From Candidatus Babelota bacterium (lineage in GTDB: Bacteria > Babelota > Babeliae > Babelales > RVW-14), in NCBI GenBank assembly GCA_013289515.1, contig JABCZU010000006.1, positions 1,773 through 65,772 on the forward strand: a stretch of 64,000 bases of DNA, written 5' to 3'. This document shows positions 26,774 through 63,869 of the stretch, one piece after another (positions within the stretch are counted from its first letter, which is position 1; each line of letters starts with the position of its first letter). The notes beneath the pieces were generated by a model that did not search any database, was not told the DNA's origin, and saw only the letters and a program-made list of their open reading frames with translations. Both the position numbers and the translations under genes were made by a program.

Positions 26774-27961
26774 ATGCCCAACATCAAAAAAATATTCTAC
26801 GTCGTCCTGCATTGTGCTGCCTACCTCTTTGCTTCTCATGCCAGCCTCCTGGCAGGATGGCGGTCAAAAAACCCTTACTCTATCGTATTACACGCCCGTA
26901 AAGATTGCGGGATGTTTAGCATCTTTGATGATGTCCTGGATATGCTCAAGCGCTATGAGCGGGGACACTACAAAGGCGTCGAAATAGATTTTAAGCAGAC
27001 GGGGGCATATTATGATCCTGATTATGGCAACAACTGGTGGAGCTACTATTGCGAGCCCATCAGCCTGGGCCAAAAAGTAGATCCGCACATAATCCTGGGA
27101 GGCAATCCATACTATATTCGCTGGTCAAAGGGAGAAAAGTATCGTAATCAAGCGTTTAGGCTGATTCAAAAATACATGCGCATAAAACCTCATATCCTGG
27201 AAAAGATCGATGCGTTAACCAAGGACTTTAACAATCATTGTGTACTTACCGTTCACTACCGAGGCACCGACAAAATTGCTGAGGCGCCGCGTATTGAGTA
27301 TGAGGTATTTTTGCAGGCAATCCAGCAGGCTATAAAAACGTTTGGTCAGCAAAGCTATAGAATGTATGTGGCGACTGATGAGCAAGCTTTTTTAGACTAT
27401 ATCATCGCACACTTTGGCCAGCACGTGCTGTACAATAAGGATGCCTTCCGCTCAGATAACAACACGCAGGCGGTGCACCTCAACCCATTTTATAACCGTT
27501 ATAAATGCGGCGAAGATGCGCTGATTGATGCCCTTGTGCTTTCGCGCGGTAATTATTTAATTAAATCGTGTTCAAATTTGAGTCGATGGTCGACATTTTT
27601 TAATCCAAAACTTCCCTTTATCCAGCTTTCTCTGCCAAAAAACTCGTATGCTACCTGCTCACTCTTTGGTCAATTGGGCAACCAGCTTTTTGAAATAGCA
27701 GCCACGCTAGCTCCACCACTTCCCAGGCCGACTAAATCCAGCTTTTCCTGGTGGGCTGCCTATCTTAACAAAAATCCTGGCAAGGTGGTCATAGCCCCCT
27801 CACACTTTCAGCTTCCTATCTCACGGACAACCGGGGTACGTGCGACGTTGCCTGACTGGTCGATCATAGATATTGATTACAAAAAATCCCATGAGTCGTA
27901 TCCAAAGGATATGTATGCTTATGATGCATCTTCAATGTCACTTGATACGCAGAATGTGTGA
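26774..27961 (+). CDS. NodZ/GT23-like fucosyltransferase fused to an internally deleted GT11 remnant
   Basis: Leader; GMFS, NWWSYY, VHYRGTDK, YVATD, ALIDALVLS; tail has GQLGNQLF followed closely by SSFSWWAAYL. Confidence 0.75.
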   Translation: MPNIKKIFYVVLHCAAYLFASHASLLAGWRSKNPYSIVLHARKDCGMFSIFDDVLDMLKRYERGHYKGVEIDFKQTGAYYDPDYGNNWWSYYCEPISLGQKVDPHIILGGNPYYIRWSKGEKYRNQAFRLIQKYMRIKPHILEKIDALTKDFNNHCVLTVHYRGTDKIAEAPRIEYEVFLQAIQQAIKTFGQQSYRMYVATDEQAFLDYIIAHFGQHVLYNKDAFRSDNNTQAVHLNPFYNRYKCGEDALIDALVLSRGNYLIKSCSNLSRWSTFFNPKLPFIQLSLPKNSYATCSLFGQLGNQLFEIAATLAPPLPRPTKSSFSWWAAYLNKNPGKVVIAPSHFQLPISRTTGVRATLPDWSIIDIDYKKSHESYPKDMYAYDASSMSLDTQNV

Positions 27962-27990
27962 TGGGGGGTTGAGAGATAGGTTGGATTTCC

Positions 27991-28020
27991 TTGACGCTAC
28001 AAAAACGTTTTAGTTACAGT
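27991..28020 (+). promoter_or_regulatory. Sigma70-like promoter
   Basis: TTGACG-N18-TACAGT. Confidence 0.5.
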
Positions 28021-28090
28021 GGTACGTAGATAAATTTTTTCAGGAAAATACAGAACGTTATTAAAACTTATTAATCTAAAGGGGATACTC

Positions 28091-28813
28091 GTGACATCTA
28101 AAGGAATTATTTTTTGTTGTGTAACAATTTTTCTTAATGCGCATGCGGTCCAATACCACCAGCCCTATGCACCGTATTATAGCCAAATTGGTCAAGATAA
28201 ATATTTAAATGAACAGCTATTTCATAACAAAAAACATGGTGTCTTCGTTGACATAGGGGCACATGATGGGATTAGCTACAGCAATAGCTATTATTTTGAA
28301 AAAAAACTTGGTTGGAAAGGGATTTGTGTAGAACCGCATCCGGACAGATATAAAGAGTTGGTTAAAAATAGAAAGGCAGCATGCGTTCAGGCCTGTATTG
28401 CTAATGCTAATGGTAAAGCAAGATTTTGCAAGATAACTGGACCCCTTGAAATGCTTAGTGGATTGATTGATGAGTATGATCCCCGCCATCTGATAAGAAT
28501 TGACCAAGACCTGAGTACACATGGGGGGAGCAAGCAAATAATATCGGTAGACGTGTTTACGCTTAAATTTGTTCTTGATAAATATAAAATAAAAAAAATA
28601 GATTTTATGAGTGTTGATACCGAGGGTAGTGAATTTCCCATCTTGCAGTCCATTGATTTGAATAAGATCTATATTGGCGTCATTGTTGTTGAAAATAATT
28701 ACCAGGACAATAAGGTTAAAAATTATTTACTTAGTAAGGGCTATGAGCTCATTAAAAAAATAGAATATGATGATGTATATAAAAAAAAGAATTATAATCC
28801 CCGCCAAAAATAA
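28091..28813 (+). CDS. FkbM-family methyltransferase with signal peptide
   Basis: YSQIGQD, FVDIGAHDG..SNS, WKGICVEP, SVDTEGSE; leader ending AHA. Confidence 0.88.
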   Translation: MTSKGIIFCCVTIFLNAHAVQYHQPYAPYYSQIGQDKYLNEQLFHNKKHGVFVDIGAHDGISYSNSYYFEKKLGWKGICVEPHPDRYKELVKNRKAACVQACIANANGKARFCKITGPLEMLSGLIDEYDPRHLIRIDQDLSTHGGSKQIISVDVFTLKFVLDKYKIKKIDFMSVDTEGSEFPILQSIDLNKIYIGVIVVENNYQDNKVKNYLLSKGYELIKKIEYDDVYKKKNYNPRQK

Positions 28814-28889
28814 GGATTGGTCATATTTTTGAGGGCTAACGCCAAAAGGTGTCTATTCTATGACGTGTGCACATTCAATGTGAGATGGC

Positions 28890-39797: not shown

Positions 39798-41747
39798 TTA
39801 TTTCAAAAACTGATTGATATACCAATCATACACTCCCTTAATGCCATCAGACAAGGCAATTTGAGCCTTCCATCCCAAGCTGTTAACATATGACACATCA
39901 AGCAATTTTTTGAGCGTACCATCAGGCTTATTGGTATCAAAGCGCAATTCTCCTTTAAAGCCAACAATGTCTTTGATAAGAAGAGCAAGGTATCGCAAGG
40001 AAATATCAGTACCAACACCAACATTAATACATTCATTGAGCATTGAAGCATCGTAATTTTGCATAAGAAATATAAGCGCTTGTGCCAAGTCATCTACATG
40101 CAAAAATTCACGCATTGGGTTACCGGTCCCCCAGACTGTAACATGATGTTTGAATACACCAATCTTGGCTAAAGTGCTAATTACTGAGGCCGAATCATTC
40201 TGATCAATTAACGCATCAAGGCCATAACCAAGACTATGCTTTTTGACATCCTGCACAATTGCTGCAAGGTCATCCTGTTCAAGTAATTTTGCCAAATGAA
40301 TTTTACGAATCAGTGCTGGTAACACGTGGGATGTTTCGAAGTTAAAATTATCATTAATACCATATAAATTGGTTGGCATAGCAGAAATAAAGTTTGTACC
40401 ATATTGGTGGTTATATGCATCGCACAGTTTAATTGCAGCTATTTTGGCCACCGCATACGGCTCATTGGTTACCTCCAATGGACCGGTAAGCAAATACTCT
40501 TCTTTCATTGGCTGCGGCGCTTGCTTTGGATAAATACAAGAGCTGCCTAAATTAATTAATTTTCGCACGCCATATTTATGTGCTGCATCAATCACGTTAG
40601 CTGCAATCATCATGTTCTTATAAATAAATTCACCTCGGTACGTATTGTTGGCCAAAATGCCGCCAACTTTTGCTGCAGCCAAGAAGACATATTCTGGGCG
40701 CTCCTTTTTAAAAAAATCATGTACTGCTTGTTGATTACATAAATCGAGTTCACTGCTTGTGCGTACTACCAAATTTTTGTATCCAGCAGCCTCAAGGGCC
40801 CGTACAAGTGCTGAACCAACCAATCCCTTATGTCCGGCAACATAGATCTTTGCCTGCAGAGGCATGGGCTTGCACGTTGTAGATTTTAGGTTATTAGTTA
40901 TAACAAATCCAAGTTTTTTGAATACATTCCCCCATTCTTTCTGCACATGTTTATACCCTACAGAAAGAATGTCTTTGACAAAGAAATTTTTAATATGCCT
41001 TTCTTTCCAATCTGTTCTATAGATCGGTAAATCATTCAGTACCACTAGCGTGTAAATAAGCTTAGGAAATTTGCGAGAAATTACATTACGTAATCCAATA
41101 GCCTCAGCTTTTGTTATTTTAGTACGAAAAAAATATATGGGCTTTCCACTGTTAAGGGCTGCATTAAAACGATCAATCCTTCTTAGCATTTTTGCTTGAA
41201 CGGCCTGATAATCGCTCAAAGGCTCAAGATCTTTTTTAAAATCATGAATAAATCGTATACCATATAATTGATCCTCAACACCTATACACCTACCATGACT
41301 CTTGCCAGTTAATTTTAAATTTTCTCGTTTCAAGTAATCTTTAAAGTTACTTTCTATTGCTCTATGAATTGCTTTAATAGGACTTATGCACCAGTCAAAG
41401 GGGAAAAATGCTTCTGAAATTTTAAAAATTTCTAAACTAAGAGCACCTGCACAATTACAACCCAGGCTTATGGTTACATATTGTTTTTTTAAACTAAGTC
41501 CTACTCCTAGGTCCGGGGAAGTATAATCTCTATCTGCTAACGGCAAATACAAGTTACAAAGACAAGCCGCCAATGCATGCGCATTAGTTTCTTTTCTTAG
41601 ATTTTCTAAAACTGAATATTCTTGTTCAATTTCATTGGCTAATATCGTTGTTGGATAATCATCTGCTGTAGTCTGAAATGGTTTTAATGGTTGTAATAAA
41701 AACAAGAATATAACACTGAGAAATGCCCTAATGGTACCTATTGCCAT
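39798..41747 (-). CDS. fcl: DUF1796 domain fused to GDP-L-fucose synthase, with leader peptide
   Basis: N-terminal ISLGCNC, FPFDW, FIHDF, RRIDRF; C-terminal KIYVAGHKGLVGSA, AAKVGGI.AN, GSSCIYP, YAVAK, PTNLYG..DNF, SHVLPA, WGTG.P.REFLHVDD, KPDG. Confidence 0.9.
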   Translation of the reverse strand: MAIGTIRAFLSVIFLFLLQPLKPFQTTADDYPTTILANEIEQEYSVLENLRKETNAHALAACLCNLYLPLADRDYTSPDLGVGLSLKKQYVTISLGCNCAGALSLEIFKISEAFFPFDWCISPIKAIHRAIESNFKDYLKRENLKLTGKSHGRCIGVEDQLYGIRFIHDFKKDLEPLSDYQAVQAKMLRRIDRFNAALNSGKPIYFFRTKITKAEAIGLRNVISRKFPKLIYTLVVLNDLPIYRTDWKERHIKNFFVKDILSVGYKHVQKEWGNVFKKLGFVITNNLKSTTCKPMPLQAKIYVAGHKGLVGSALVRALEAAGYKNLVVRTSSELDLCNQQAVHDFFKKERPEYVFLAAAKVGGILANNTYRGEFIYKNMMIAANVIDAAHKYGVRKLINLGSSCIYPKQAPQPMKEEYLLTGPLEVTNEPYAVAKIAAIKLCDAYNHQYGTNFISAMPTNLYGINDNFNFETSHVLPALIRKIHLAKLLEQDDLAAIVQDVKKHSLGYGLDALIDQNDSASVISTLAKIGVFKHHVTVWGTGNPMREFLHVDDLAQALIFLMQNYDASMLNECINVGVGTDISLRYLALLIKDIVGFKGELRFDTNKPDGTLKKLLDVSYVNSLGWKAQIALSDGIKGVYDWYINQFLK

Positions 41748-42069
41748 ATTATTCCCTTTCCCCTTATTAGTTAATTTTGAAACAGTTACCCAATATCCCC
41801 AATTTAATAGACAGAAAAGGCTCTTTGCAACATTGTATTATAAAATAAAATATTGATTGCAGTGGAAAATTGACTTAGCCATGCAAAAAAACCACACTTT
41901 CTTAGTAAAAACGATTACCTTTTAGAAAATAGATAGATTTATTTAGTAAAATTTTTTTGGCTAAGAGACATTGAACAAATTGCGAAAAAACGTCCGCTGG
42001 AAATGCCTCAATTTCGGCAATTGCTCTTCGATAACCTCATATCTATAAGTCATCAATAGTACACAAATC

Positions 42070-42099
42070 TTGATCGAATAAAGATATCTTTATTATAGT
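42070..42099 (+). promoter_or_regulatory. Sigma70-like promoter upstream of gmd
   Basis: TTGATC-N18-TATAGT in the divergent fcl/gmd intergenic region. Confidence 0.45.
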
Positions 42100-42192
42100 G
42101 GCAAGGAGATGCAATGCGCGATCTTTTTTTAGGAATGGGAAAGCGCTATATTTACAAAAAATGTATTATGGTACAGAAGGGGATAAAAAATA

Positions 42193-43428
42193 ATGAAATA
42201 TATTGTCAGGTTATTTTTATTAAACGCATTTGCTATTATGCCGTACTCAATCAGTGGTTATGCGCCCTTAGTCAACAGCGATTCTAGTCCCATTGCTCAT
42301 CCATTAAAGATAAATACCAATACTGTTAGCAATAAAAAAGTTGCTCTCATTATTGGTGTTACAGGACAAGATGGAGCCTATCTTTCAGAATTTTTATTAA
42401 GAAAGCACTATACTGTACATGGCATTAAGAGACGTTCCTCGTCATTCAATACAGGAAGAATAGACCATCTTTATCAAGATCCTCACCTCAATGCCAACAA
42501 GCACTTTATCTTGCACTATGGCGATTCAACCGATGCCAGCAGCATCTTAGCAATCATACAAAAGGTGAAACCAGATGAGATTTATAACCTTGCAGCACAA
42601 AGTCACGTTCAAGTTTCATTTGAAATGCCCGCCTACACGGCAATGGTGGATGCTTTGGGAACATTATACGTTCTAGAAGCTATTCGCAGCCTTGGCTTAA
42701 CACATAAAACAAAATTTTATCAGGCATCAACAAGCGAACTTTTTGGTAAGGTTCAGGAAACTCCCCAAAAGGAGACAACGCCGTTTTATCCACGCTCCCC
42801 TTATGCCGTTGCTAAAATTTATGGCTTTTGGATAACCAAAAACTATCGTGAAGCCTATAATATGTTTGCATGTAACGGTATCCTATTTAATCATGAATCA
42901 CCCATCAGAGGCGAAACCTTTGTCACCAGAAAAATTACACGGGCAGTTGCGCGCATTAAATATGGCCTTGAAGATACGTTATATTTAGGAAATCTTGATT
43001 CCAAGCGCGACTGGGGACACGCTCGTGATTATGTGGAAGCTATGTGGCTTATGCTTCAGCAAAAAACCGCTGATGACTTTGTGATCGCCACCGGCCAAAC
43101 TCATTCTGTAAGAAAGTTTGTTGAACTAGCCTTTAAAGAAGCTGGCATCACTATTAAGTGGCACGGGGAAGGAGTCAACGAATACGGAACTGATAAGGAC
43201 ACGGGCAAGGCCATCGTTATGGTTGATAAAAAATACTTCAGGCCAACAGAGGTCGATCTGCTCCTTGGCGACGCCACTAAGGCACGCACAATTCTTAGAT
43301 GGACGCCTCGTACCACATTTGAGCAATTAGTTAATGAGATGGTTGTTAGTGAAATGGATGAGGTCCGCCATCAAATGAGATCATTGCAAACCAATCAATC
43401 GCTCTTTGAAGAACAGGATCTGTATTAA
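42193..43428 (+). CDS. gmd: GDP-mannose 4,6-dehydratase with ~47-aa N-terminal leader
   Basis: [67 protein letters not shown]. Confidence 0.95.
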
Positions 43429-43429
43429 G

Positions 43430-44455
43430 ATGAAAAAAATACTCTATGGCCTTATCTATTGCATGTTGCATACAACACTGACACTGGCAAATGCTGAAAA
43501 AATCATTTATATAGTTCCAGCAATAGACACGCCCACCAATGGAGGATTATTTGCTCCTAAAGAATTTAATGATAGTCGAAGGAGGTTTATAGCATTAAAA
43601 GAAGTAGCACAACGCAAAGGCTACACACTTCAGGCAACTAAAGACATTAGCGATAAAAAAAATGTTGTTGCTGTCGTTGTTTTTACTACCATGCATATTA
43701 ACCAGAAATTGCTTCAGAATTTGCAACAATATCCCAAGAGAAAGCGCATCCTATTTTTGTCAGAATCTCCTCTGTTGCAAGGATGGGCTCATGATTCATC
43801 CATCACAAAACATTGGGGGAAAGTATTTACCGTATTAGATAACTTTGTCGACAATAAAAAATTTTTTAAATATTACTATCCACAATCTTCGTTACAAATG
43901 ATTGGTGATATACCCCCTTTTGAGCAAAAAAAATTTTGTACCCTGATTGCAGGTAATAAAGATTTCTGTAGTAAGAATAAAGATGGGCTCTACGTACAAC
44001 GAAGAAAAACAATAAAATTTTTTGAAGATTTACATACTAATGAGTTTGATTTATATGGCATTGGATGGAACAAAAAAAAGAATCCATCATATCAAGGAGC
44101 AATCAAAAATAAAACGGAAACTCTAAAACATTACAAGTTTTGTATTTGTTATGAGAATATTAAAAACACTTATGGTTATATCTCAGAAAAGATTTTTGAC
44201 TGTCTTATAGCTGGTTGTATTCCAATTTATTGGGGAGCTGCAAATGTTACCTCTTACATCCCAAAAAATTGCTTTATAGACCGACGAGCATTCAACTCCC
44301 TAAGTGACCTTTATAGATTTTTAAAAAAGATGAATGAGGATACCTACAATCAATATTTGGTAAATATTAGAAAGTTTCTAAATTCAGAAAAAGTAAATAA
44401 ATTTTCCATAAATCATTTTACAAAAACATTCTTGAATGCTGTAGAAAAACCATAG
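43430..44455 (+). CDS. GT10-like (alpha-1,3/4) fucosyltransferase with signal peptide
   Basis: ESP, YKFCICYEN...GYISEKIFD.L.AGCIPIYWG (alpha-3-fucosyltransferase motif); leader ending ANA. Confidence 0.82.
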   Translation: MKKILYGLIYCMLHTTLTLANAEKIIYIVPAIDTPTNGGLFAPKEFNDSRRRFIALKEVAQRKGYTLQATKDISDKKNVVAVVVFTTMHINQKLLQNLQQYPKRKRILFLSESPLLQGWAHDSSITKHWGKVFTVLDNFVDNKKFFKYYYPQSSLQMIGDIPPFEQKKFCTLIAGNKDFCSKNKDGLYVQRRKTIKFFEDLHTNEFDLYGIGWNKKKNPSYQGAIKNKTETLKHYKFCICYENIKNTYGYISEKIFDCLIAGCIPIYWGAANVTSYIPKNCFIDRRAFNSLSDLYRFLKKMNEDTYNQYLVNIRKFLNSEKVNKFSINHFTKTFLNAVEKP

Positions 44456-44515
44456 TTCAATGGATAAGGATTTTTGCGACAGATATGCAAAAAATCTGTC
44501 GCAGGGGGCAGGGTT

Positions 44516-45772
44516 ATGAAGTTGACGTATAAAAAATTATACAGATTGCTATGTTTACAAATATTCTTTCTATGGAATATCTTTCCTCTTAATTATATCG
44601 ACCAGGTTGACGACCTCTTATATCGTTCTGTGTATATGCCCCAAAAAAGCGAAAAAAAAACTGCTGTTGTGCTAGTGCACCACGATGCCCCGCATTGGGG
44701 GGGCATGGAGTCTCATATGGTTAATTATTACAAGACACTTCTGAAACATGGACATTCTGTGGTGCTTATTACGAAGACGGGGACAGAAACAGCGCGACAG
44801 CTTGATTGTATGAAATTACCCTTTATGCCGTTTTCTAAAAATGGCTTGTATCAGGATATGCTTGATGCTTGTAGGGCTATTGATGCCAATGTTATTGTGT
44901 GTCTGAGCTTTGAGAAAGTTGGTGTAGCAAAGCTTGTAGCAAAAACCATGCCTATTAAGATTATCTATGAGCAGCACATGGTCTCGTATGCACAACAATC
45001 AGGCTCTGTAACAATGCTCAAAGGTATTGATGCCGTTGTGGCGGTCAACCAGGAGCTTGTAAATCATTTTGAAAAAATAAATCAACATGATACATTAGAT
45101 ATCAAGCACATAAAATTTATTCCGCCCTTTATGGACGAGGATAGGTTTTCTTTGCCGCTACCAAAAATATCTAAAGACAAATACTTTAAAAAGAATTTTA
45201 ACATAGGACTCAAACAGTGTCCTACGCTTTGTATGATAGCTGGTATGTACCCAAGTGTTGATGGCAAAAATCACCCATTACTTTTTAAAGCAATTCACCA
45301 TTTTGTGCATATTAAAAAAAGACCGGTACAAGCCTTACTTGTTGGTGATGGCGCAGCCAAAGAGTATTTAAAAAAATTGGTACACAAATTAAAAATAAAT
45401 GAGTACATACACTTTCTTGGTTTTACACCCCCTTCTCAAATTCCTGCTATTCTTCATTATGCAGATTTTCACGTATTGGCAAGCACAAAGGAGTCATTTG
45501 GTCTTGTTCATATAGAGGCCGGTTTTATGAAAAAACCGTCGATAGGGGCATTGGGAACCGGAGCAACCACTATTATTAAACACGGCGTATCAGGATTGTT
45601 ATTTAAAAATAACAACCTTAAAAGCCTGATTAATTGTATTGACCAGTTGGCTCATCGCCCCGTATTGTGTGCCAAGTTTGGCAAGAATGCCTTTGAGTAT
45701 ATGCATAAATATTTTTCTAACGATATTCACTATCAGCTGCTTACAGATCTTTATAAAAAAATAGGTTGTTAA
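44516..45772 (+). CDS. GT4-family glycosyltransferase, close paralogue of 34635..35927
   Basis: WGGMESHMVNYYKTL, ESFGLVHIEA; hydrophobic leader. Confidence 0.85.
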   Translation: MKLTYKKLYRLLCLQIFFLWNIFPLNYIDQVDDLLYRSVYMPQKSEKKTAVVLVHHDAPHWGGMESHMVNYYKTLLKHGHSVVLITKTGTETARQLDCMKLPFMPFSKNGLYQDMLDACRAIDANVIVCLSFEKVGVAKLVAKTMPIKIIYEQHMVSYAQQSGSVTMLKGIDAVVAVNQELVNHFEKINQHDTLDIKHIKFIPPFMDEDRFSLPLPKISKDKYFKKNFNIGLKQCPTLCMIAGMYPSVDGKNHPLLFKAIHHFVHIKKRPVQALLVGDGAAKEYLKKLVHKLKINEYIHFLGFTPPSQIPAILHYADFHVLASTKESFGLVHIEAGFMKKPSIGALGTGATTIIKHGVSGLLFKNNNLKSLINCIDQLAHRPVLCAKFGKNAFEYMHKYFSNDIHYQLLTDLYKKIGC

Positions 45773-45797
45773 TAAAAACCACTGTGGAGATTTTTTA

Positions 45798-46736
45798 GTG
45801 ATGATTAAATTAACGTTTTTAGCAAATACAAGAGTATTGGTAGTATTATTTATTTTGATTCAAGGCTCATTATTAGGTCTTATTATTCAGGTTCCTCCTG
45901 CACACCATCACCAAGTACAACTCAGTGGGTTACGAGCTTCAAGCCTTCCGTACATCTCAGGTGATACTTTTAGAATGGCCTGCGATCTTATTATTGATGA
46001 AAGACAGCGCGTATTCAATACTGACTGGGTAAAAAATGGTAGTGTTATTTTTCTTAAAGCAAATCTGATCCCATTTTTCTTTACGCGGATTCATCCCTAT
46101 ATTACTAAGCGGTATATCCTTGTAACACATAATAGTGTTCAACCTGCTCCTGGTAAATTTATCAAATATTTGAATGATAAAAAAATCATCGCCTGGTTTG
46201 GACAAAACTGCGATAGCAATGCGCATAAAAAATTTATACCAATTCCAGTAGGTATTGCTAATCGTTACTGGTCAATCGGCGATATTAAAGTGTTTGACAA
46301 TGTTCGTGAGCGCACAAAAAATCATGAGCGTCCCTGGCTTGTCTACCTTAATTGTGTAAATACCCATCCGGAACGCCAAGAGGTTAATAGGCTTTTTTCG
46401 AGTAAGCCATGGTGTGTGAATGCGACAAAAAAACCGCACCCTGAATTCTTAGAAGATCTTGCGCGTTGTAAATTTATATTATGTCCACGGGGTAATGGGC
46501 TTGATTGCCATAGAACCTGGGAAGTACTTCTTATGGGCGCCATCCCTATCATGAAACACTCAACGCTGGATCCATTATTTGCAGGACTCCCTGTTGTACT
46601 TATTAATAAGTGGAGTGATGTTACCGAGGATTTTCTTGAAAAAACATACGCCAAAATACAACGCACAATATTTGCAACTGATCGTATGTTTGGTGGCTAT
46701 TGGCTAAAGCTTATTGCTCAGGCAAAAAAATTATGA
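45798..46736 (+). CDS. Exostosin/GT47-like glycosyltransferase with leader
   Basis: PYISGDTFR, IPIPVGI.N, KFILCPRGNGLDCHRTWE.L.MGAIPI. Confidence 0.75.
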   Translation: MMIKLTFLANTRVLVVLFILIQGSLLGLIIQVPPAHHHQVQLSGLRASSLPYISGDTFRMACDLIIDERQRVFNTDWVKNGSVIFLKANLIPFFFTRIHPYITKRYILVTHNSVQPAPGKFIKYLNDKKIIAWFGQNCDSNAHKKFIPIPVGIANRYWSIGDIKVFDNVRERTKNHERPWLVYLNCVNTHPERQEVNRLFSSKPWCVNATKKPHPEFLEDLARCKFILCPRGNGLDCHRTWEVLLMGAIPIMKHSTLDPLFAGLPVVLINKWSDVTEDFLEKTYAKIQRTIFATDRMFGGYWLKLIAQAKKL

Positions 46737-46923
46737 TCGCTTATCAATAAGAACCTTACTTGATCTTTTTGCTTGACAATCAGAGTGGCCTTAATGAAGG
46801 ATATGTATCACAGATAAATGCTTTGATATGTGAAGCACCTTGACCTTGCAGTGTGAGGGCGTATAAAAACAAAATTTGTGCGCATATTATGATAAATCCT
46901 ACTTCCTACAAGCAAAGAGTGCA

Positions 46924-47793
46924 ATGCCAAGAAATCTATTATTTATGATAACGTTTTATTGCGCCTGTTCTATTGGATCCTTATTATCCAATGTCCAAAA
47001 GATTGTACGTAGCTTTCCCCCAAAAGGTAATTATTCCGTTGTCATGCACTCCCGACAAGGTGCCGGTATGTTTAGTATGTTTGATGATGTTCTTGATTTA
47101 TTAAAACGTTACGAGCTAGGGCATTATCAAGGCGTTGAGGTAAATTTAGGAAAAACAGGGGTTTACTATCAACCTAGTCATGGTGAAAATTGGTGGTCCT
47201 ATTATTGCGAACCAATAAGCCTGGGTAAAAAAAGTAATAGTAAAATGATTATGGGTGGGGATCCATACATCATTTCATGGCGACGACATCCATGGCCTCG
47301 GAAAGAAGCATCTAGGCTTATTAAGAAATATATACGCATCAAATCTCATATTCAAAAAACAGTTAATGTTTTAAGCAGAGCCCTAAAAGACCATTTTGTC
47401 ATATCAGTTCATTACAGAGCAACTGACAAACTTTTTGAGGCTCCTCGCGTGAGCTTTGAAAAGTTTGAGCAAGAAGTCCTAAAAACAATGAAAGCTTACG
47501 GTCAAAAAAAATATAAAATTTTTGTAGCAACTGATGAGCAAGCATTCTTATGTTATATGATCAAGAAATTTGGGATTCTTGTTCATTATAATCCGAGTGC
47601 AATACGTTCCAAGGATGGTAAGCCTGTCCATAATAATGTGCAGAATGACCAGTATAAATGCGGCGAGGATGCCTTGATTGACGCGCTTTTACTCTCTCGA
47701 GGAAATTATCTTATTAAGACTGTCTCATTTTTAAGCAGGTGGGCAACATTTTTTAATATCAATCTTCCCTTTGTAGAGTTGAGCAATAAATAA
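46924..47793 (+). CDS. NodZ/GT23-like fucosyltransferase with leader
   Basis: GAGMFS, NWWSYY, VHYRATDK, FVATD, ALIDALLLS. Confidence 0.8.
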   Translation: MPRNLLFMITFYCACSIGSLLSNVQKIVRSFPPKGNYSVVMHSRQGAGMFSMFDDVLDLLKRYELGHYQGVEVNLGKTGVYYQPSHGENWWSYYCEPISLGKKSNSKMIMGGDPYIISWRRHPWPRKEASRLIKKYIRIKSHIQKTVNVLSRALKDHFVISVHYRATDKLFEAPRVSFEKFEQEVLKTMKAYGQKKYKIFVATDEQAFLCYMIKKFGILVHYNPSAIRSKDGKPVHNNVQNDQYKCGEDALIDALLLSRGNYLIKTVSFLSRWATFFNINLPFVELSNK

Positions 47794-47839
47794 CAAATGC
47801 AATGTTGATCTATTATATTTATGATAAGAAGGAGAAATC

Positions 47840-48565
47840 ATGTATCAAATCTTAAAAAAAACGGCGATTTTATTTATTGCTGGCCTACTGTTTTTTCAGC
47901 ATGTAGAATGTGCTCGCAAAATAACCAAAAAAATAACCAAAAAAATTATCAAGACATATTTACCTGAACATTTTGTGGTTGTTGAGGCTGGTGCATGCAA
48001 TGGCTCAGATACTGCTGAAATGGCCAAGCTTTGGCCCAATAGTAAAATACACGCCTTTGAGCCAGTGCCCGCTCTTTTTGCTCAATTGAAAAATAGAGTC
48101 AAAAATCATAAAAATGTTGCCTGTTATACTTCCGCGTTAAGTAATCAAGCAGGATCTGCTACATTTTATGTTAGCAGTGGAACATCGGATGCTTCAAGTT
48201 CCTTGCTGAAGCCTAAAGAGCACTTAACTGTTTGTCCAACCGTTCTTTTTGAAAAAGAAATTATTGTTAAAACAATTATGCTAGATGATTGGGCCAAACA
48301 ACATAAGATAGAAAAAGTTGATTTTCTATGGCTTGATATGCAAGGATCCGAGCTCACAATGCTTAAAGCAGCTCCAAAGATACTTAAAACAGTACGTGTT
48401 ATTCAGATGGAGGTATCTATAAAGGAGTTGTATGAAACGGTTCCTCTTTATTCCGAAGTACGAAAGTGGCTCGAACAACAAGGGTTTGCGGTGGTACTGG
48501 CTGATATAGATGAGGCTAGAGGATGGGGAGATGTGTTGTTTGTTAGGAAAAAGGCATATCTTTAA
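47840..48565 (+). CDS. FkbM-family methyltransferase with signal peptide
   Basis: VEAGACNG.D, HAFEP, SSSLLKP, WLDMQGSE, WGDVLF. Confidence 0.88.
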   Translation: MYQILKKTAILFIAGLLFFQHVECARKITKKITKKIIKTYLPEHFVVVEAGACNGSDTAEMAKLWPNSKIHAFEPVPALFAQLKNRVKNHKNVACYTSALSNQAGSATFYVSSGTSDASSSLLKPKEHLTVCPTVLFEKEIIVKTIMLDDWAKQHKIEKVDFLWLDMQGSELTMLKAAPKILKTVRVIQMEVSIKELYETVPLYSEVRKWLEQQGFAVVLADIDEARGWGDVLFVRKKAYL

Positions 48566-48647
48566 CCCCTTTATAAAAGAGCCCATGCAGGAACAGAGGG
48601 GAAATGTACTTAAAGTTCTTGGGCTTTTAAAATAATAAGGAAATGTA

Positions 48648-49577
48648 ATGGTGGGGCTTAAAAAAACATGCGGTGTTTTATTAGTTGTTGCCGCATGGGG
48701 CCGTGCTATCATCCCTGTTGATCAATGCATAACACTAATAAATCAATCCGTATTATCAAACCCAACCAAAGCGACATGCCAACCTACTGTAATCCAAGCC
48801 CCTATTGACGGCACCATCCTTTTTGCCACGCCACTACCCTCTCACGGCATTTATTACCCTCGGGCAGGTGCGTATTATCAAGCCGATCCTACACATCAAA
48901 AGGTCATGGTTGGCAAAGCCAAGCTCGCCCAGCGGTTTACACCGTACACCGATGCATGGTATACGCATGGCGGCCGGAATACGCAAGAGCTTAATGACTT
49001 GGTAGATGCCGTCATTGATTACGTAAAACCAAAGCTATCTATTGCAACTAAAAAGCCTAAGCTTGCAATCTTTGATATTGATGAAACGATCGTAAGTTTT
49101 TATTGGGTGCATCGTGCCAACCATTGCAAGCAGCGCGGACAACATGCCGGCCTGGTAGTACTTGAGCCTTTACATCGCCTCTACCAATTTTTCCAGGCGC
49201 ATAAATGTGCTATTGCCTTTATAACGGCGCGCAAAGAGCCACGGCGTAAGGCTACAGAAAGTATGCTTAAGGCTTGTGGCTACCAAAATTATGCTGCGCT
49301 GCACCTATTACCAGTTGATTACGATGAAGCAAAGGTGCACGTGTATAAAGAATCTGCCCGACAAACACTGTCCCAGCAGTACGAAATTGTTGCTACCATT
49401 GATGATGATTGTAAAAATTTAACAGGCAAGGCGCTTGGTTGGTGTGCTGTCTGGGTTCCTTCTCTATTGTATCGGCGTGATCATGACGAGGCCTTCTTTT
49501 CATCACTGCAAAAAATTGTGACGACTGATGTATATGCTCCAACACATAAACATGCTAAGCTCGTGAATCCGGAGTAG
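48648..49577 (+). CDS. HAD-superfamily (class B-like) acid phosphatase with leader
   Basis: AIFDIDET (motif I), FITAR (II), YK (III), IDDD (IV). Confidence 0.75.
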   Translation: MVGLKKTCGVLLVVAAWGRAIIPVDQCITLINQSVLSNPTKATCQPTVIQAPIDGTILFATPLPSHGIYYPRAGAYYQADPTHQKVMVGKAKLAQRFTPYTDAWYTHGGRNTQELNDLVDAVIDYVKPKLSIATKKPKLAIFDIDETIVSFYWVHRANHCKQRGQHAGLVVLEPLHRLYQFFQAHKCAIAFITARKEPRRKATESMLKACGYQNYAALHLLPVDYDEAKVHVYKESARQTLSQQYEIVATIDDDCKNLTGKALGWCAVWVPSLLYRRDHDEAFFSSLQKIVTTDVYAPTHKHAKLVNPE

Positions 49578-49610
49578 TGTTTAAAGGAGAATGTGTTTAG
49601 AGGGGAAGAT

Positions 49611-50831
49611 ATGTTTTTACGTCGATCAACGTTTTTTATTGGAGCGTTATTTTTATTAAGTTTGTCAAAAGAGGCTCGATCATTTGATTATACGGTGAAG
49701 GTGGCGACCGAGGCGGTCTATTCACCACAGGTGTCATTCTGTATCGTTGATTTAAAATATCGCAAAAATAATCTTAAAGTGTGTGAGCTAGGAGAGGGTG
49801 CCTACTCAGGTTTTCATGGACATGAACGGCTCTTTGGCCCTGGCAAAATATGGAGCAATTTTTGGGATTTTCTTGCTTCTTTTAGAACCCCATTTTATTT
49901 TGTTGATCCTTCAAATATTTTTGTCCGCCTACGAGCGCAGCAACAGCACAATGATCAATGGTCAAGTGCTACATTTGCACAACATGGGGGTAGGGTTGTG
50001 CGCTCATTTCAACATCTTGATGACACCATCAATAAGCAAAAAAAACAGTACAAGGCGCAGGCTCTTGGTCAGAGTCTCCTTCCTGACAAAACCACCTTAG
50101 TTATGTTTCATTTGCCTGGCATGCTTTTTAATCAAAGCAATAAGGATAAGATTACACAACTGCGCTACCCCGATACCGTTTTTGTTGATGCAATGACCCA
50201 TCCCTTTGTTTTAAATAAATTACTGACACACAAGCTTTTTATGCAAGACCAAAATCTTGTTAGTTTCAGGCCACAATGCCTGATCCTGCCAACCGGCTAC
50301 ACATCAGACATGGTTAAAAAGATACAAAAAACTATCAAGTCAGATCATTATGTTGTTAAGCCTATAGCCGATACTCATGGCAACGGGATTATGATGATAA
50401 GCAAACAGGAGCTTGGTCAAACGCTTCAAAAAATGTTTTGTCGTGGCTATTCATACGATCGTGACCCTCTCATTGCCTATTGGCAAAAAAGTAGGGCCGG
50501 TTCCTTTTTAGTTGAGTCACATGAATCCTCAGATCCCATTGAAGTTGGTGATAAGCATTATGACGCCACCATGCGCGTTGCCTTTGGCATTTATTATAGT
50601 GAGGGGACGGTAGGCATCTCATTTTTGGGGGCCTATTGGAAGCTGCCCAGCCTTGCCCTGGAAGATACTGGCCCGTTAACTAAAAAATTAAAATCGCGCA
50701 TTGCACATGGCACCAAATGTTCTGCAAAGGTTGCTCCGGCTGTGTATAATGAGGTGAAGGCTATCTTGTCTGCCATGTTGCCGCCGCTGTTTATTAAAAT
50801 GATTGAGGATAGGCATAGCAAGCCACGGTAA
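49611..50831 (+). CDS. Secreted ATP-grasp-like protein, apparently circularly permuted
   Basis: NKLLT, YVVKP...HGNGI, FLVE, MRV; N-terminal IVDLK...VCELGEG..SG. Confidence 0.55.
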   Translation: MFLRRSTFFIGALFLLSLSKEARSFDYTVKVATEAVYSPQVSFCIVDLKYRKNNLKVCELGEGAYSGFHGHERLFGPGKIWSNFWDFLASFRTPFYFVDPSNIFVRLRAQQQHNDQWSSATFAQHGGRVVRSFQHLDDTINKQKKQYKAQALGQSLLPDKTTLVMFHLPGMLFNQSNKDKITQLRYPDTVFVDAMTHPFVLNKLLTHKLFMQDQNLVSFRPQCLILPTGYTSDMVKKIQKTIKSDHYVVKPIADTHGNGIMMISKQELGQTLQKMFCRGYSYDRDPLIAYWQKSRAGSFLVESHESSDPIEVGDKHYDATMRVAFGIYYSEGTVGISFLGAYWKLPSLALEDTGPLTKKLKSRIAHGTKCSAKVAPAVYNEVKAILSAMLPPLFIKMIEDRHSKPR

Positions 50832-50847
50832 TACAGGAGATATCAGT

Positions 50848-52077
50848 ATGATACGTACAACAAAGATAGCCATCCTTATGGCCGCTGGAATAACGGCGCC
50901 TGCCTTACCGGTAACCCAGGCCGCCAAAAAGCTCAAGGTCCTGGTCGTAAATGAAACGCTTGGCAAAACAGGTATTAGTGTTTTTTCTGATAATGTATAC
51001 AAACAACTGATTCGTAATAACATACCGGCCATAGCGCTTATCGCTGAAAAGAATAATGCTCTGCGTGCCGAGTACGACGCATTAAAGCTGCCGTACCACA
51101 CATTCCCCTGCACTAAGCGACAAGCCCACGGATTGTTGATCAAACAATTGGCTACAATTATGCAGACCATTTGTACTAAAGAAAATATTACCATCATTCA
51201 CGGCAATAATCACATCTTTAACCCTGAGGGCATGGCTGCGGCAAAATTGGTAGCAAAAAAAATACCGGTCAAAGTGGTGGCAACCATACATTCCGAACCG
51301 GATTGCTGCAAAGTGCCGTTTAAAGGGCTTGATGGAGTTATATCGATTGGCCCTGCGGTGGGACGTCTTGCTGATAGCATTGATACAAAAGAAAAGACTG
51401 GCGTGCACCACCGCATGTGGATTGCACCCTTCTTTGATCAAGAGCGTTTCTTATCATTTGTGCCGACACAGCGTGAGACACGAAGGCAGTTTTTTAAAAA
51501 TACTTTTAACATCGTCCTTAGCGATGATGTTCCCGTCATTAGCATGGTGGCACAATTTTATAAGACGCCTACATTTAAAAATCATGATCTTTTGTTACGT
51601 GCCTTGCACAAGCTTGTGTATGTATTAAAAAAACCGGCGTACGTTATTTTCGCAGGGGCTGGCGTTAGTCTGGCTGCCAAACAACAATTAAGCCGCGAGC
51701 TAGATTTATCACAGCATGTTTTTTTTGTTGGGCAAACCGATCAGGTTCCGGCATTACTCTACCATTCGGATATATGTGCCCTTACCGGCAAGTCAGAAGC
51801 TTTTGGTATTGCACTACTGGAAGCAGCGTTGATGCAAAAGCCGTTGATCGGTACACGTGGTACCGGCATGGAAGCGCTGGTTAGGCATGGCCACACCGGC
51901 CTTCTGTTTGAGTCGGGCAATGTTGATGATCTCACCAAGCAGATCGTAACGTTGCTTGATGATGCCGTCTTGAGAAAAAAGCTTGGCCAGCAGGCGCACG
52001 CGTATGCTCGTGATCATTTTTCCGCTGATGCGGTTTTCAAAAAACTTGTGGCATTCTATGACAGGGTGCTTGGGTAA
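50848..52077 (+). CDS. GT4-family glycosyltransferase with signal peptide
   Basis: KNHDLLL.A, FAGAG, EAFGIALLEA, GHTGLLF; RBS aggag before ATG 50848. Confidence 0.85.
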   Translation: MIRTTKIAILMAAGITAPALPVTQAAKKLKVLVVNETLGKTGISVFSDNVYKQLIRNNIPAIALIAEKNNALRAEYDALKLPYHTFPCTKRQAHGLLIKQLATIMQTICTKENITIIHGNNHIFNPEGMAAAKLVAKKIPVKVVATIHSEPDCCKVPFKGLDGVISIGPAVGRLADSIDTKEKTGVHHRMWIAPFFDQERFLSFVPTQRETRRQFFKNTFNIVLSDDVPVISMVAQFYKTPTFKNHDLLLRALHKLVYVLKKPAYVIFAGAGVSLAAKQQLSRELDLSQHVFFVGQTDQVPALLYHSDICALTGKSEAFGIALLEAALMQKPLIGTRGTGMEALVRHGHTGLLFESGNVDDLTKQIVTLLDDAVLRKKLGQQAHAYARDHFSADAVFKKLVAFYDRVLG

Positions 52078-57732: not shown

Positions 57733-59001
57733 TCAGGCGGCGCAGGCATTTTTTGAAGTGAATAATGCCAGATTTGCGTGTAAATGGGGGGCGTCGGGCT
57801 GTTGTTCTAAGGCCTTCAAAACAGCTTTTTTGCCAAGCTCATAGTCTCCAACGTACCAGGCTGAAATACCTAATAGGTCATACCGCTTATAGTCATACAA
57901 CTCCTTTTCAACAAATAAATGATCCGATTGCGGATACGGCACCTCTACTGCCTTGCAGGCAAATAAAAAACGTGTATTTTGTTCATCGATTTTATCATAG
58001 TGCTGGGCAAGCCTTACGAGTGGCTCAGCACGGCTTGGACGCATGTTCCAAGCATCAAGATATTTACTCAGCGCCATCTCCCACTTGCCTAATTTTTCGT
58101 ATACCTGTGCCAGCCTATAACAGGCCATAAAATTTTCTTCATCCCAACCAGGCATCATAATACGACGTTCATACCATAGGCGAGCATTGGGCAAGTCGTC
58201 TAAACAATCGTATGTTTGTGCCACATAAAATACCGTACGCGGATCAAATGGGTTACGTTGATATTCTTGCAATAATAGCTTAACATCGCGTGACCATCGT
58301 GCTTGTGATTTTTCTTTGCCATAGCGTGAAGGAAGCCATTTGAAATAGACGTCCGGTGACACTTTTTGCTCAGTAACCTGATTAAGCACCTCATGGACAA
58401 CACCAACAAAATGTACATGTGCATGACATCGAATAAGGCGCGGCGAGTAAAAATCAATAGTATTATTGAGAAGTCGCATCAAATAGGCAGTATGCACATC
58501 CTCTTTATGTGACGCACAAAATTGCACCAGTCCCTCAACATTATGAATATACCACTCTGCATCAGGCATAAGCATAAAGCTAGCTTGAGGAAAAGCCTCT
58601 TGGGCACATTGCAGCCCTCGATTGCGTGAGGTTGCAAAATCGACAAATGGTTCCTGTTTAATCACGGCATTATGCACATGCTTATCTTGGAAATATTTTT
58701 TTGTTATCGCAATAGTATCGTCGGTGGAGCCGGTATCAAAAATGAAAAAAGCCAAAGCATTTTTATCAATGTGTGCATCAATAAAAGGCTGCAATGTTTC
58801 TCGGATAACAGCGGCTTCATCCTTTACCATGAGCACAACTACCAGTAGTGGGTCATTGTTATTAGAATGTGTAGTAGGACTGTGCTTTGCTTTGTCATCC
58901 CGGACTTGATCCGGGATCCATTCAATTAGTCCATCCACATTAGATCCGCTTAAAAAGCAGGACATAAAAACAAAAGATATCAATAAAAAATACGTCTTCA
59001 T
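57733..59001 (-). CDS. GT2 + TPR glycosyltransferase with signal peptide
   Basis: MVKDEA..I..TL, DTGSTDDT, F..SRN..L, DAEW, GVVHE, R..FY.AQTY; TPR helices (P.RAEPL..LA). Confidence 0.82.
   Translation of the reverse strand: MKTYFLLISFVFMSCFLSGSNVDGLIEWIPDQVRDDKAKHSPTTHSNNNDPLLVVVLMVKDEAAVIRETLQPFIDAHIDKNALAFFIFDTGSTDDTIAITKKYFQDKHVHNAVIKQEPFVDFATSRNRGLQCAQEAFPQASFMLMPDAEWYIHNVEGLVQFCASHKEDVHTAYLMRLLNNTIDFYSPRLIRCHAHVHFVGVVHEVLNQVTEQKVSPDVYFKWLPSRYGKEKSQARWSRDVKLLLQEYQRNPFDPRTVFYVAQTYDCLDDLPNARLWYERRIMMPGWDEENFMACYRLAQVYEKLGKWEMALSKYLDAWNMRPSRAEPLVRLAQHYDKIDEQNTRFLFACKAVEVPYPQSDHLFVEKELYDYKRYDLLGISAWYVGDYELGKKAVLKALEQQPDAPHLHANLALFTSKNACAA
58894..58920. repeat. RPE-like palindrome within coding sequence (translates as WIPDQVRDD)
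   Basis: gtcatcccggacttgatccgggatcca; relatives at 15070-15097 and 19823-19849. Confidence 0.75.
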
Positions 59002-59153: not shown

Positions 59154-62538
<3,385 letters not shown>

Positions 62539-62620
62539 ATTTTTATCCTTCGTTCTTTTTTTAGCTAGCTTATTACAATAAGAAAAATGTCGTATATTCC
62601 TTTACCATCCTTTCGTTCAT

Positions 62621-62660
62621 AAAAAACCCGGGGTTGATTCATAAGAACCAATCCCGGGTT
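62621..62660 (-). terminator. Terminator hairpin
   Basis: aacccggg...cccgggtt with a T run on the minus strand. Confidence 0.6.
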
Positions 62661-62689
62661 AAAACTTAACAAGCAATAGTCATGTGTTA

Positions 62690-63778
<1,089 letters not shown>

Positions 63779-63869
63779 AAGACTACTCCTCATTAGAAAT
63801 GATAATAATAAGATAAAAATCGATACCACCAACCTAAACAGATTTGCTATGCGATAGGCAAGAATTCTT

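Follow-up and report, generated by a model that had tools for sequence, protein, structure and literature searches.

A run of 22 leader-bearing enzymes for a putative sulfated, fucosylated glycan in a Candidatus Babelota bacterium

Gene content of the cluster

The window analysed here is a stretch of 64,000 nucleotides from a Candidatus Babelota bacterium and corresponds to bases 1773-65772 of contig C6 in a genome of 1.43 Mb, which is assembled in 46 contigs and is 87% complete; every genome-wide absence given below refers to this assembly. Positions 26774-52077 of the window are filled by 22 open reading frames (ORFs) in unbroken succession (Table 1), among them glycosyltransferases, sulfotransferases, methyltransferases and enzymes that make activated donors. 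Proteins of this set possess hydrophobic N-terminal leaders (such proteins are called tagged below), and these leaders exist, are conserved among relatives, are additions to the enzymes that carry them and are specific to this enzyme set.

The Pfam families identified in the block are FkbM (two proteins), the glycosyltransferase (GT) families GT2 (three), GT4 (three) and GT10, Sulfotransfer_1 (two), GDP_Man_Dehyd (Gmd), DUF1796, DUF1796 joined to an Epimerase domain (Fcl), class B acid phosphatase, PUA_2, ATP-sulfurylase and APS_kinase in one protein (Sat-CysC), and an RXYLT1/GT47-like match below the cut-off. Most of the enzyme labels given to this DNA in an earlier note are therefore confirmed by Pfam; the NodZ-like trio and the ATP-grasp protein remain below the cut-off, and the protein at 35924 that was called GT-A-like (hereafter unk359) has no Pfam match. 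The catalytic motifs HRAH and GLSGAGKST are present in the translation of Sat-CysC, the Y-x-x-x-K motif in those of Gmd and Fcl, and loops for binding 3'-phosphoadenosine 5'-phosphosulfate (PAPS) in those of both sulfotransferases. For Sat-CysC, Gmd, Fcl and the sulfotransferases the tagged copies are the only ones in the genome. The nearest named homologues of Sat-CysC (65% identical) and of the sulfotransferase (52% identical) both belong to 'Candidatus Dependentiae bacterium' and agree with a placement of the genome in Dependentiae, as do the labels of the related loci described below. GC content is 34-39% over most of the cluster (28000-48000), as compared with 44-53% in its flanks and 44% genome-wide, and may reflect acquisition from elsewhere or a different selective regime.

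Leader sequences of the cluster proteins

Leaders were scored by two rules of our own, lenient and strict, rather than by SignalP, and the rules were calibrated on bases 1-100000 of Escherichia coli K-12. Flags among 56 cytosolic proteins of that region numbered 1 (annotated start) and 5 (any in-frame start) under the lenient rule, and 0 and 1, respectively, under the strict one; of 4 signal-peptide proteins, 4 were recovered by the lenient and 3 by the strict rule. In the cluster the lenient rule identifies a leader in 22/22 proteins at any in-frame start, in 19/22 at the longest-ORF start and in 21/22 at the first ATG, while the strict rule identifies 17/22. The claim of the earlier note that every coding sequence between 26774 and 52077 begins with a leader thus holds under the lenient rule, and by these calibrated rules the leaders look secretory, as had been proposed.

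The same rules also flag many of the 1128 other ORFs of the genome: 571 at any start and 410 at the first start by the lenient rule, 426 and 279 by the strict one. Enrichment of the cluster over this background gives binomial tails of 3e-7 to 2e-4, and no shuffle among 5000 reaches the run of 22 obtained with the lenient rule at any start. The longest strict run, of 9, is equalled by 12% of 2000 shuffles and is not significant; strict run length was dropped as evidence of clustering, as runs are significant only with the lenient and first-ATG flags.

Lysine or arginine precedes the hydrophobic core in 21 of the 22 leaders, with the exception of GT2 (a). The core has a median length of 14 residues (interquartile range 11.5-17), yet a hydropathy of 1.6 over 19 residues is reached by 13 of the 22, and several of these segments could be anchors. 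Small residues at positions -3 and -1 are found in 20/22 cluster proteins, 106/109 members of the Sat-CysC clade and 22/23 members of the sulfotransferase clade described below, under a permissive rule with no shuffled control. The leader of NodZ-like 1, MPNIKK-IFYVVLHCAAYLF, is recognised by the lenient rule only and has GGAGG at -9 before its ATG.

Among the proteins that the earlier note had taken as leaderless controls, neither rule flags PriA, the M16 peptidase, either of the AAA genes or one half of the transketolase; the other half is flagged, at codon 51 only. The epimerase at 22064 has a lenient flag only, and this is its Rossmann strand, since its Pfam domain starts at residue 3.

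Table 1. Features of the 22-ORF block and of the neighbouring collagen-like region, with positions in the window.
Feature	Position	Strand	Evidence and remarks
NodZ/FUT8-like fucosyltransferase 1	26774..27961	+	Paralogues at 36908 and 46924; Pfam NodZ match under cut-off (E 7e-5)
FkbM methyltransferase 1	28091..28813	+	Pfam Methyltransf_21 1.4e-21; strict leader
GT2 (a)	28890..29573	-	Pfam 1.1e-7; strict leader, n-region without K/R
GT2 (b)	29801..30772	+	Pfam 2.6e-14; leader followed by K-rich stem
Sulfotransferase 1	30873..31880	+	Pfam Sulfotransfer_1 6e-10; strict leader
Sat-CysC (ATP sulfurylase and APS kinase, makes PAPS)	31917..33617	+	Pfam 4.7e-85 and 7.2e-59; leader replaces canonical N-terminus
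GT2 (c)	33700..34638	+	Pfam 2.7e-17; leader followed by K/R-rich stem
GT4 (a)	34671..35927	+	Pfam 1.1e-25; longest ORF from 34635, leader at codon 12
unk359, candidate GT-A-like transferase, VDDI motif	35924..36904	+	No Pfam match; leader
NodZ/FUT8-like fucosyltransferase 2	36908..37858	-	Pfam NodZ 1e-4, below cut-off; leader with LVGC, possibly lipobox
Sulfotransferase 2	38154..38900	+	Pfam 1.4e-21; leader end (VNA-AP) directly precedes PAPS-binding loop
DUF1796 protein	38935..39756	+	Pfam 7.7e-18; lenient leader only
Leader, DUF1796 and GDP-fucose synthase (Fcl)	39798..41747	-	Pfam; 48% identical to E. coli Fcl from ~residue 296
GDP-mannose 4,6-dehydratase (Gmd)	42193..43428	+	Pfam 8.8e-156 from residue 52; leader-bearing extension of 48-51 residues
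GT10 fucosyltransferase	43406..44455	+	Pfam 5.9e-16; leader ...TLTLANA-E
GT4 (b)	44516..45772	+	Pfam 1.4e-26; leader; longest ORF from 44474
RXYLT1/GT47-like protein	45798..46736	+	Pfam 4.5e-6, just below cut-off; ~20-residue hydrophobic segment, anchor-like
NodZ/FUT8-like fucosyltransferase 3	46924..47793	+	No Pfam match; 52-55% identical to other two copies; leader
FkbM methyltransferase 2	47840..48565	+	Pfam 3e-23; leader followed by K-rich stretch; AAGGAG at -11
HAD class B acid phosphatase	48648..49577	+	Pfam Acid_phosphat_B 9.7e-17; leader
ATP-grasp-like protein	49611..50831	+	Weak Pfam ATPgrasp_ST match, 16 bits against cut-off 31.4; leader
GT4 (c)	50848..52077	+	Pfam 2.9e-29; leader; AGGAG at -13
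GT2 and TPR protein, outside the 22-ORF block	57733..59001	-	Pfam; strict leader
Collagen-like (G-x-T)n protein, candidate acceptor	59154..61367	-	Pfam Collagen 1.2e-69; leader
Collagen-like protein with BclA_C-like C-terminal domain, candidate acceptor	61498..62538	-	Collagen 7e-12; BclA_C 35.5 bits against cut-off 38; leader
Collagen-like (G-x-T)n protein, candidate acceptor	62690..63778	-	Pfam Collagen 2.2e-16; leader

Leaders in related genomes

The status of the leaders as additions was assessed by alignment for three of the 22 proteins: Gmd, Sat-CysC and sulfotransferase 2. Gmd possesses ~48 extra residues relative to E. coli Gmd (64% identical), whose residue 3 aligns at residue 49. The Dependentiae loci that were retrieved contain 39 different Gmd genes, 31 of them with a leader. 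An AxA-like site (as in ...NVLTA-KVALIFGITGQDG) often closes the leader 1-3 residues ahead of the first Rossmann strand, and leaderless Gmd homologues begin where these leaders end. Both forms coexist in five genomes, and in a Gmd tree rooted on E. coli most leaderless copies are grouped in one clade and most leader-bearing copies in another.

Sat-CysC was found in 13 of the 261 genomes of the phylum that were searched, this one included, together with one pseudogene, and all 12 other intact homologues bear a leader. Among its 120 nearest proteins in a set of 5.8 billion, 109 possess a leader, including one from a named Parachlamydia sp.; of the remaining 11, eight, a Terriglobales protein among them, have the canonical 'PHGG' N-terminus and three have leader-like N-termini that are unflagged or truncated. 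In the relative G122 (C1:967026-968682; L136-L138) the Sat-CysC homologue is a pseudogene with three in-frame stops. For sulfotransferase 2, leaders are present in 22 of the 27 nearest relatives as against 0 of 93 distant ones (Bacillus, cyanobacteria, archaea and others), and in the relatives they stop just ahead of the motif P-D-F-x-I-x-G-x-x-K-C-G-T. Gmd and sulfotransferase leaders end 0-3 residues ahead of the leaderless start (sulfotransferase example ...VNAA-PDFIILGVTKCGTT), a position that fits cleavage better than a membrane anchor. Across relatives it is hydrophobicity that is kept, and not the sequence of the leader.

Eighty related loci were collected around homologues of unk359, from Dependentiae/Babeliales, Parachlamydiales, Simkaniaceae, Rhabdochlamydiaceae and others. 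In these loci leaders are found in 260 of 285 homologues of the cluster proteins as against 516 of 880 other ORFs. By family, the homologues of GT2 (c) and Fcl in related loci bear leaders in 89/94 and 13/15 cases, and the homologues of GT10 and of the RXYLT1/GT47-like protein in 12/12 and 11/11. The earlier note had proposed to check by alignment that the leaders are extensions and to look for the same cluster in Dependentiae and environmental Chlamydiae: in Gmd, Sat-CysC and sulfotransferase the leaders are indeed extensions or replacements relative to leaderless homologues, and leader-bearing homologues and similar clusters are distributed across Dependentiae, with some families also in environmental Chlamydiae.

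Other sugar enzymes of the genome and the classical export route

Outside the cluster, six of seven GT4 genes are leaderless, as are both NTP-transferases and several epimerases of the genome; of two GT2 matches, the copy on contig C3 is leaderless and that at 57733-59001 is leader-bearing. At a second sugar locus, C12:21804-36973, genes for small proteins with leaders are scattered among leaderless GT4 genes, an epimerase gene and methyltransferase-like genes; this locus is probably the cytoplasmic glycan route.

As the earlier note had stated, no Wzx, Wzy, ABC exporter, priming transferase or ManB/ManC is encountered among the Pfam matches of the 22 proteins. Genome-wide, Wzx (PF01943) and Wzy_C (PF04932) have 0 matches each, no such search being made for ABC-type exporters; Bac_transf also has 0 matches, MraY-type genes number one, and E. 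coli ManC, WcaJ, WzxC and WcaD find no match in the genome. Genome-wide absence of ManB was rejected, as a homologue of phosphomannomutase/phosphoglucomutase (PMM/PGM; 31% identical) lies on C2, and so was absence of a sulfate importer, as one SulP-type match is present. Set against the classical polysaccharide loci that depend on undecaprenyl phosphate, the block contains no priming transferase, flippase or polymerase/ligase, and 22/22 of its enzymes are tagged. Three GT-C (PMT_2) genes are found in the genome; tandem ORFs of ~480-590 residues at C18:2545-14155 look like polytopic membrane proteins, and PMT_2 (GT-C) matches occur in three of them, in only one case above the Pfam cut-off.

NodZ-like trio, unk359 and ATP-grasp protein

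The NodZ-like proteins at 26774 and 36908 score 22.2 and 21.7 bits against Pfam NodZ, below its cut-off of 28.3, and the third, at 46924, has no match. NodZ-like 2 was modelled with AlphaFold2 (AF2; mean predicted local distance difference test, pLDDT, 79), and in Foldseek the model matches FUT8 (6x5s) with E 2e-9 and NodZ (3six) with E 4.5e-9, as well as POFUT1/2 and plant FUT1, at template modelling (TM) scores of 0.5-0.6. In alignment A2, R167 is invariant and H165 nearly so, and both are putative catalytic residues. As judged from the one modelled copy, the predicted fold of the trio is that of GDP-fucose-dependent fucosyltransferases. The C-terminal ~75 residues of NodZ-like 1 (27730-27961) are missing from both paralogues and show a weak GT11 match (E 0.0075); this tail may be what is left of another fucosyltransferase gene.

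PDB sequence searches with NodZ-like 2, unk359 and the ATP-grasp protein gave no significant match. The AF2 model of unk359, built from 4 sequences, has a pLDDT of 61 and is too poor for a fold search; its N-terminal half alternates strand and helix, and from this pattern and the VDDI motif alone unk359 is probably a GT-A-like transferase. It has 169 relatives in Dependentiae and Chlamydiae genomes, with a leader in 74 of 80. In Chlamydiae loci (L100, L104, L058 and L044) the unk359 domain forms the C-terminal half of an anchored protein of ~570 residues, whose gene belongs to a small, conserved operon that also encodes a GT2-like protein and two proteins of unknown function with leaders. The ATP-grasp-like protein has paralogues on C11 and C2.

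Export machinery and neighbouring genes

The genome contains three Peptidase_S26 (signal peptidase) matches over the cut-off and three secretins. In Babela massiliensis, according to its genome report, type II is the sole secretion system found (PMC4378268), and signal-peptide-bearing ankyrin and ubiquitin C-terminal hydrolase (UCH) proteins of Dependentiae are presumed, in the genome reports, to be secreted into the host cytoplasm via Sec and type II (PMC4378268, PMC6561590; see PMC4776705). In the present window a UCH with a leader is encoded at 8333-9892 on the minus strand (Pfam UCH 5.7e-44), the substrate of which exists in the host only. The adjoining protein at 9914-11182 (minus strand) has a near-identical leader, a K/Q/A-rich linker and a body with a weak beta-roll match; these two proteins look like host-directed effectors. 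At 2468-6214, also on the minus strand, lies a gene for a leader-bearing protein of 1248 residues rich in Q, A, P, E and R, with a PVPxP-like proline-rich stretch followed by a long charged part that is probably coiled-coil, and with AT skews of -0.29 and -0.39.

Collagen-like (G-x-T)n genes number five in the genome: four lie in a row beside the glycan cluster (59154-63832, minus strand, and then on C6 past the window) and the fifth at C27:14710-15987. The protein at 59154-61367 contains 167 uninterrupted Gxx triplets and 23% threonine, and threonine makes up 19-23% of the collagen-like trio of the window. For the surface of these bacteria in general, a cultured member of the phylum is described as being without lipopolysaccharide genes (PMC6561590).

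Proposed site of action of the pathway

Bacterial nucleotide-sugar glycosyltransferases, GDP-fucose synthesis and PAPS synthesis are cytoplasmic processes, and glycans built outside the membrane are thought to require lipid-linked donors. The interpretation favoured here, with somewhat better than even confidence, is that the leaders are Sec signal peptides and that the pathway, supplied by the host with ATP, GDP-mannose, NADPH and S-adenosylmethionine (SAM), operates outside the cytoplasm. Signal peptidase I would cleave most leaders, with a few possibly serving as signal anchors or as signals of lipoproteins. All of the toolkit would thus exit the cytoplasm: PAPS synthesis (Sat-CysC), GDP-fucose synthesis (Gmd and Fcl), ~12 glycosyltransferases of Leloir type (four of them fucosyltransferases), two sulfotransferases, two methyltransferases, the ATP-grasp enzyme and the phosphatase. 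It would act where host metabolites have access: in the periplasm or, if type II secretion carries it further, at the bacterial surface, in the vacuole or in the host cytosol. Host ATP, sulfate, GDP-mannose, NADPH and SAM would be consumed there. Nucleotide transporter genes of NTT type, which mark an energy parasite, number five in the genome, and therefore host ATP must reach the periplasm; its presence in the periplasm of an NTT-dependent parasite is certain, and sulfate, GDP-mannose, NADPH and SAM presumably reach that space as well. Sat-CysC would make PAPS, Gmd and Fcl would make GDP-fucose, and the transferases would assemble a glycan with fucose, sulfate and methyl groups; 3'-phosphoadenosine 5'-phosphate (PAP) or GDP may be cleared by the class B acid phosphatase. 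Because the leaders are taken as Sec signal peptides, the enzymes would share a compartment with Sec-exported acceptors; the glycan probably decorates exported proteins, with the adjacent BclA-like collagen fibres as lead candidates. Export, compartment, acceptors and glycan composition are all inferred.

Several findings weigh against this interpretation. Five proteins fail the strict rule (26774, 38154, 38935, 43406 and 46924). The background rate of leaders amounts to 25-51% of the 1128 other ORFs, and 44% of coding sequences in Chromulinavorax destructans have a leader by Phobius, as given in its genome report (PMC6561590). Nucleoside diphosphate kinase (Ndk; 15133-15651, plus strand; Pfam NDK 1.2e-52 from residue 38) has an N-terminal extension of 37 residues, in which a hydrophobic segment of ~24 residues is followed by KHYRR. 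Its homologue in the relative G235 is leaderless. Because leaders are very common genome-wide, Ndk included, a leader is a weaker mark here than elsewhere; the earlier note had held that a similar frequency on ordinary enzymes would speak against export, and such a frequency is in part observed, the run of 22 still being beyond chance. The C-flank of 15 residues holds more lysine and arginine than the n-region in 10/22 proteins. In E. coli, positive charges after the hydrophobic stretch hinder Sec export, and by the positive-inside rule basic C-flanks would fit an N-out, C-in anchor. As an indicator of orientation this analysis was set aside as ambiguous, for such flanks occur in 10/22, and basic mature N-termini are likewise seen in proteins of this genome that are clearly exported. 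The supply of NADPH, GDP-mannose and SAM in the periplasm is unproven, and the SulP-type transporter could import sulfate. In the GDP-fucose operon of the relative G103, ManC is untagged, Gmd tagged and Fcl untagged, and in the relative G201 a leaderless Gmd adjoins tagged ManC, Fcl and Gmd. Adjacency of collagen-like genes is not conserved (4/80 unk359 loci and 0/10 Gmd regions); they were rejected as a conserved partner, and the acceptor idea comes from this genome alone. Finally, an activated-sludge secretome study lists few predicted 'extracellular' proteins per Dependentiae metagenome-assembled genome (PMC11495043); this is hard to reconcile with massive secretion, although the class counted is another than signal peptides.

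The main rival explanation is that the leaders are uncleaved anchors that tether the enzymes on the cytoplasmic face of the inner membrane, N-terminus out and catalytic domain in, and that the product leaves by an unrecognised route; this is considered unlikely. The hydropathy reached by 13 of the 22 segments would suit anchors, but the median core of 14 residues is short for a membrane span and the n-region is basic in 21/22. Likewise, the more basic C-flanks of 10/22 proteins, together with the very basic stems of GT2 (b), GT2 (c) and FkbM 2, favour this orientation in the cluster, whereas in the Sat-CysC clade the C-flank is more basic in just 20/109. The unk359 homologues of Chlamydiae have longer, anchor-like segments, and the segment of Ndk is of that kind too; the leaders of Gmd and sulfotransferase, however, abut the first strand without a linker at an AxA-like site, and soluble enzymes (Gmd, Fcl and Sat-CysC) are tagged as well. 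The SulP transporter and the PMM/PGM homologue also speak for anchors, but no flippase or ligase family was found in the genome.

Still less probable is that leaders are a genome-wide habit of Dependentiae with little bearing on this pathway, perhaps associated with inefficient export, dual localisation or alternative starts, and that the enzymes are cytoplasmic as usual. The background rates here and in C. destructans and the tagged Ndk are consistent with such a habit, yet other GT4, GT2, epimerase and NTP-transferase genes of the same genome are leaderless. Some operons of relatives mix tagged and untagged steps, but five genomes retain leaderless and leader-bearing Gmd paralogues together and the leaders are conserved over a large clade (109/120 for Sat-CysC). 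A few genes have an in-frame start past the leader, for example GT2 (b) at codon 26, whereas FkbM 1 (with no alternative start in its first 50 codons), sulfotransferase 2, Gmd, Fcl, FkbM 2 and the HAD phosphatase have no later in-frame start that leaves the domain intact. These six genes, together with purine-rich motifs resembling ribosome-binding sites 5' of most leader starts, also make it unlikely that the true starts lie downstream, a doubt raised in the earlier note. An annotation artefact, in which the leaders are translated non-coding AT-rich DNA, is very improbable: the cluster has 34-39% GC, AT-rich DNA translates to peptides rich in I, L, F and K, and the Gmd of G103 has an ATG directly ahead of its Rossmann strand, but 30 stop-free codons have a chance of ~10% at ~35% GC under assumed base frequencies, yet 260/285 homologues keep an open extension that is first basic and then hydrophobic, and leaders are included in the public gene calls of homologues (Sat-CysC and sulfotransferase).

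Comparison with known systems

Chlamydia trachomatis secretes glycogen enzymes into the inclusion lumen, according to Gehre et al. 2016, eLife (PMC4829429). The likeness to the putative exported pathway is that an obligate intracellular bacterium exports normally cytoplasmic enzymes of a sugar polymer and produces a glycan outside itself from a host nucleotide sugar. The Chlamydia enzymes reportedly leave by type III secretion and form a homopolymer from host UDP-glucose. Here the leaders are of Sec type, ~22 enzymes would make a heteroglycan, the donor-making enzymes Gmd, Fcl and Sat-CysC are also tagged, sulfation and methylation are added, and the system is known from sequence alone. The sialyltransferase Lst of Neisseria gonorrhoeae is located in the outer membrane. 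Lst uses host CMP-N-acetylneuraminic acid (CMP-NANA) (PMC10827150, PMC4668040). It is likewise a Leloir-type glycosyltransferase outside the cytoplasm that works on a host-supplied nucleotide sugar, but it is a single enzyme that adds one sugar to lipooligosaccharide, with no donor made and no full pathway.

The Golgi contains GT10, GT23-like and GT47-like fucosyltransferases and PAPS-dependent sulfotransferases with N-terminal targeting segments in a non-cytosolic compartment, where a lumenal phosphatase removes nucleotide by-products; its donors originate in the cytosol and enter through transporters. Similar kinds of enzymes with N-terminal segments would work jointly here, without any claim of homology of the whole systems, and with the difference that the donor-making enzymes are tagged too. 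Giant viruses possess viral GMD/GMER and methylated, fucose-containing capsid glycans. Their glycosylation is described as autonomous (PMC4691112, PMC5408694). They too are protist parasites with nucleotide-sugar enzymes, glycosyltransferases and methyltransferases of their own, and decorate their surface proteins within the host by means of host metabolites; their enzymes, however, are synthesised in the host cytoplasm itself and require no signal for export. The exosporium protein BclA of Bacillus is glycosylated inside the mother cell. It forms a glycosylated collagen-like filament with O-linked oligosaccharides including a methylated sugar (PMC6222408, PMC10050317). Shared with BclA are the (G-x-T)n collagen repeats and the BclA_C-like domain, found here beside the glycan cluster, but the BclA_C match is under the Pfam cut-off and glycosylation here is putative. 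The colanic acid locus of E. coli (gmd-fcl-gmm-wcaI-cpsB-cpsG-wcaJ-wzxC, and wcaD) also has Gmd and Fcl (64% and 48% identical, respectively) beside fucosyltransferases; its enzymes are leaderless, and the ManB/ManC, priming transferase, flippase and polymerase that accompany them are all absent from this block.

In none of these precedents (Chlamydia glycogen, Lst, Golgi and giant viruses) do tags of Sec type occur together with an entire heteroglycan pathway and with tagged enzymes for making the donors. Literature searches found no paper on such a tagged pathway, and supplementary signal-peptide lists of Dependentiae genome papers may include enzymes of this kind. What is new here is the tagging of PAPS and GDP-fucose synthesis, the tagged sulfotransferases, the paired leaderless and leader-bearing paralogues, and a Sat-CysC clade of >100 protein clusters that reaches Chlamydiae.

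Significance

A conserved set of secretion-tagged enzymes over two phyla of protist parasites provides a concrete and testable case. As a wider proposal, held tentatively and at less than even confidence, Dependentiae and part of the environmental Chlamydiae may run a Golgi-like extracytoplasmic glycosylation and sulfation system, in which PAPS and GDP-fucose are made on site, fuelled entirely by host cytosolic metabolites. If export is true, Leloir-type synthesis would take place in the bacterial periplasm or at the surface, where textbooks rule it out for want of nucleotide sugars, and the cluster would be a pointer to the first bacterial PAPS synthase and sulfotransferases that act outside the cytoplasm. 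An energy parasite may thus have shifted the synthesis of its surface glycans into a host-fed space, like the giant viruses that live in the same hosts, and the cluster offers a way into the uncharacterised surface of this phylum.

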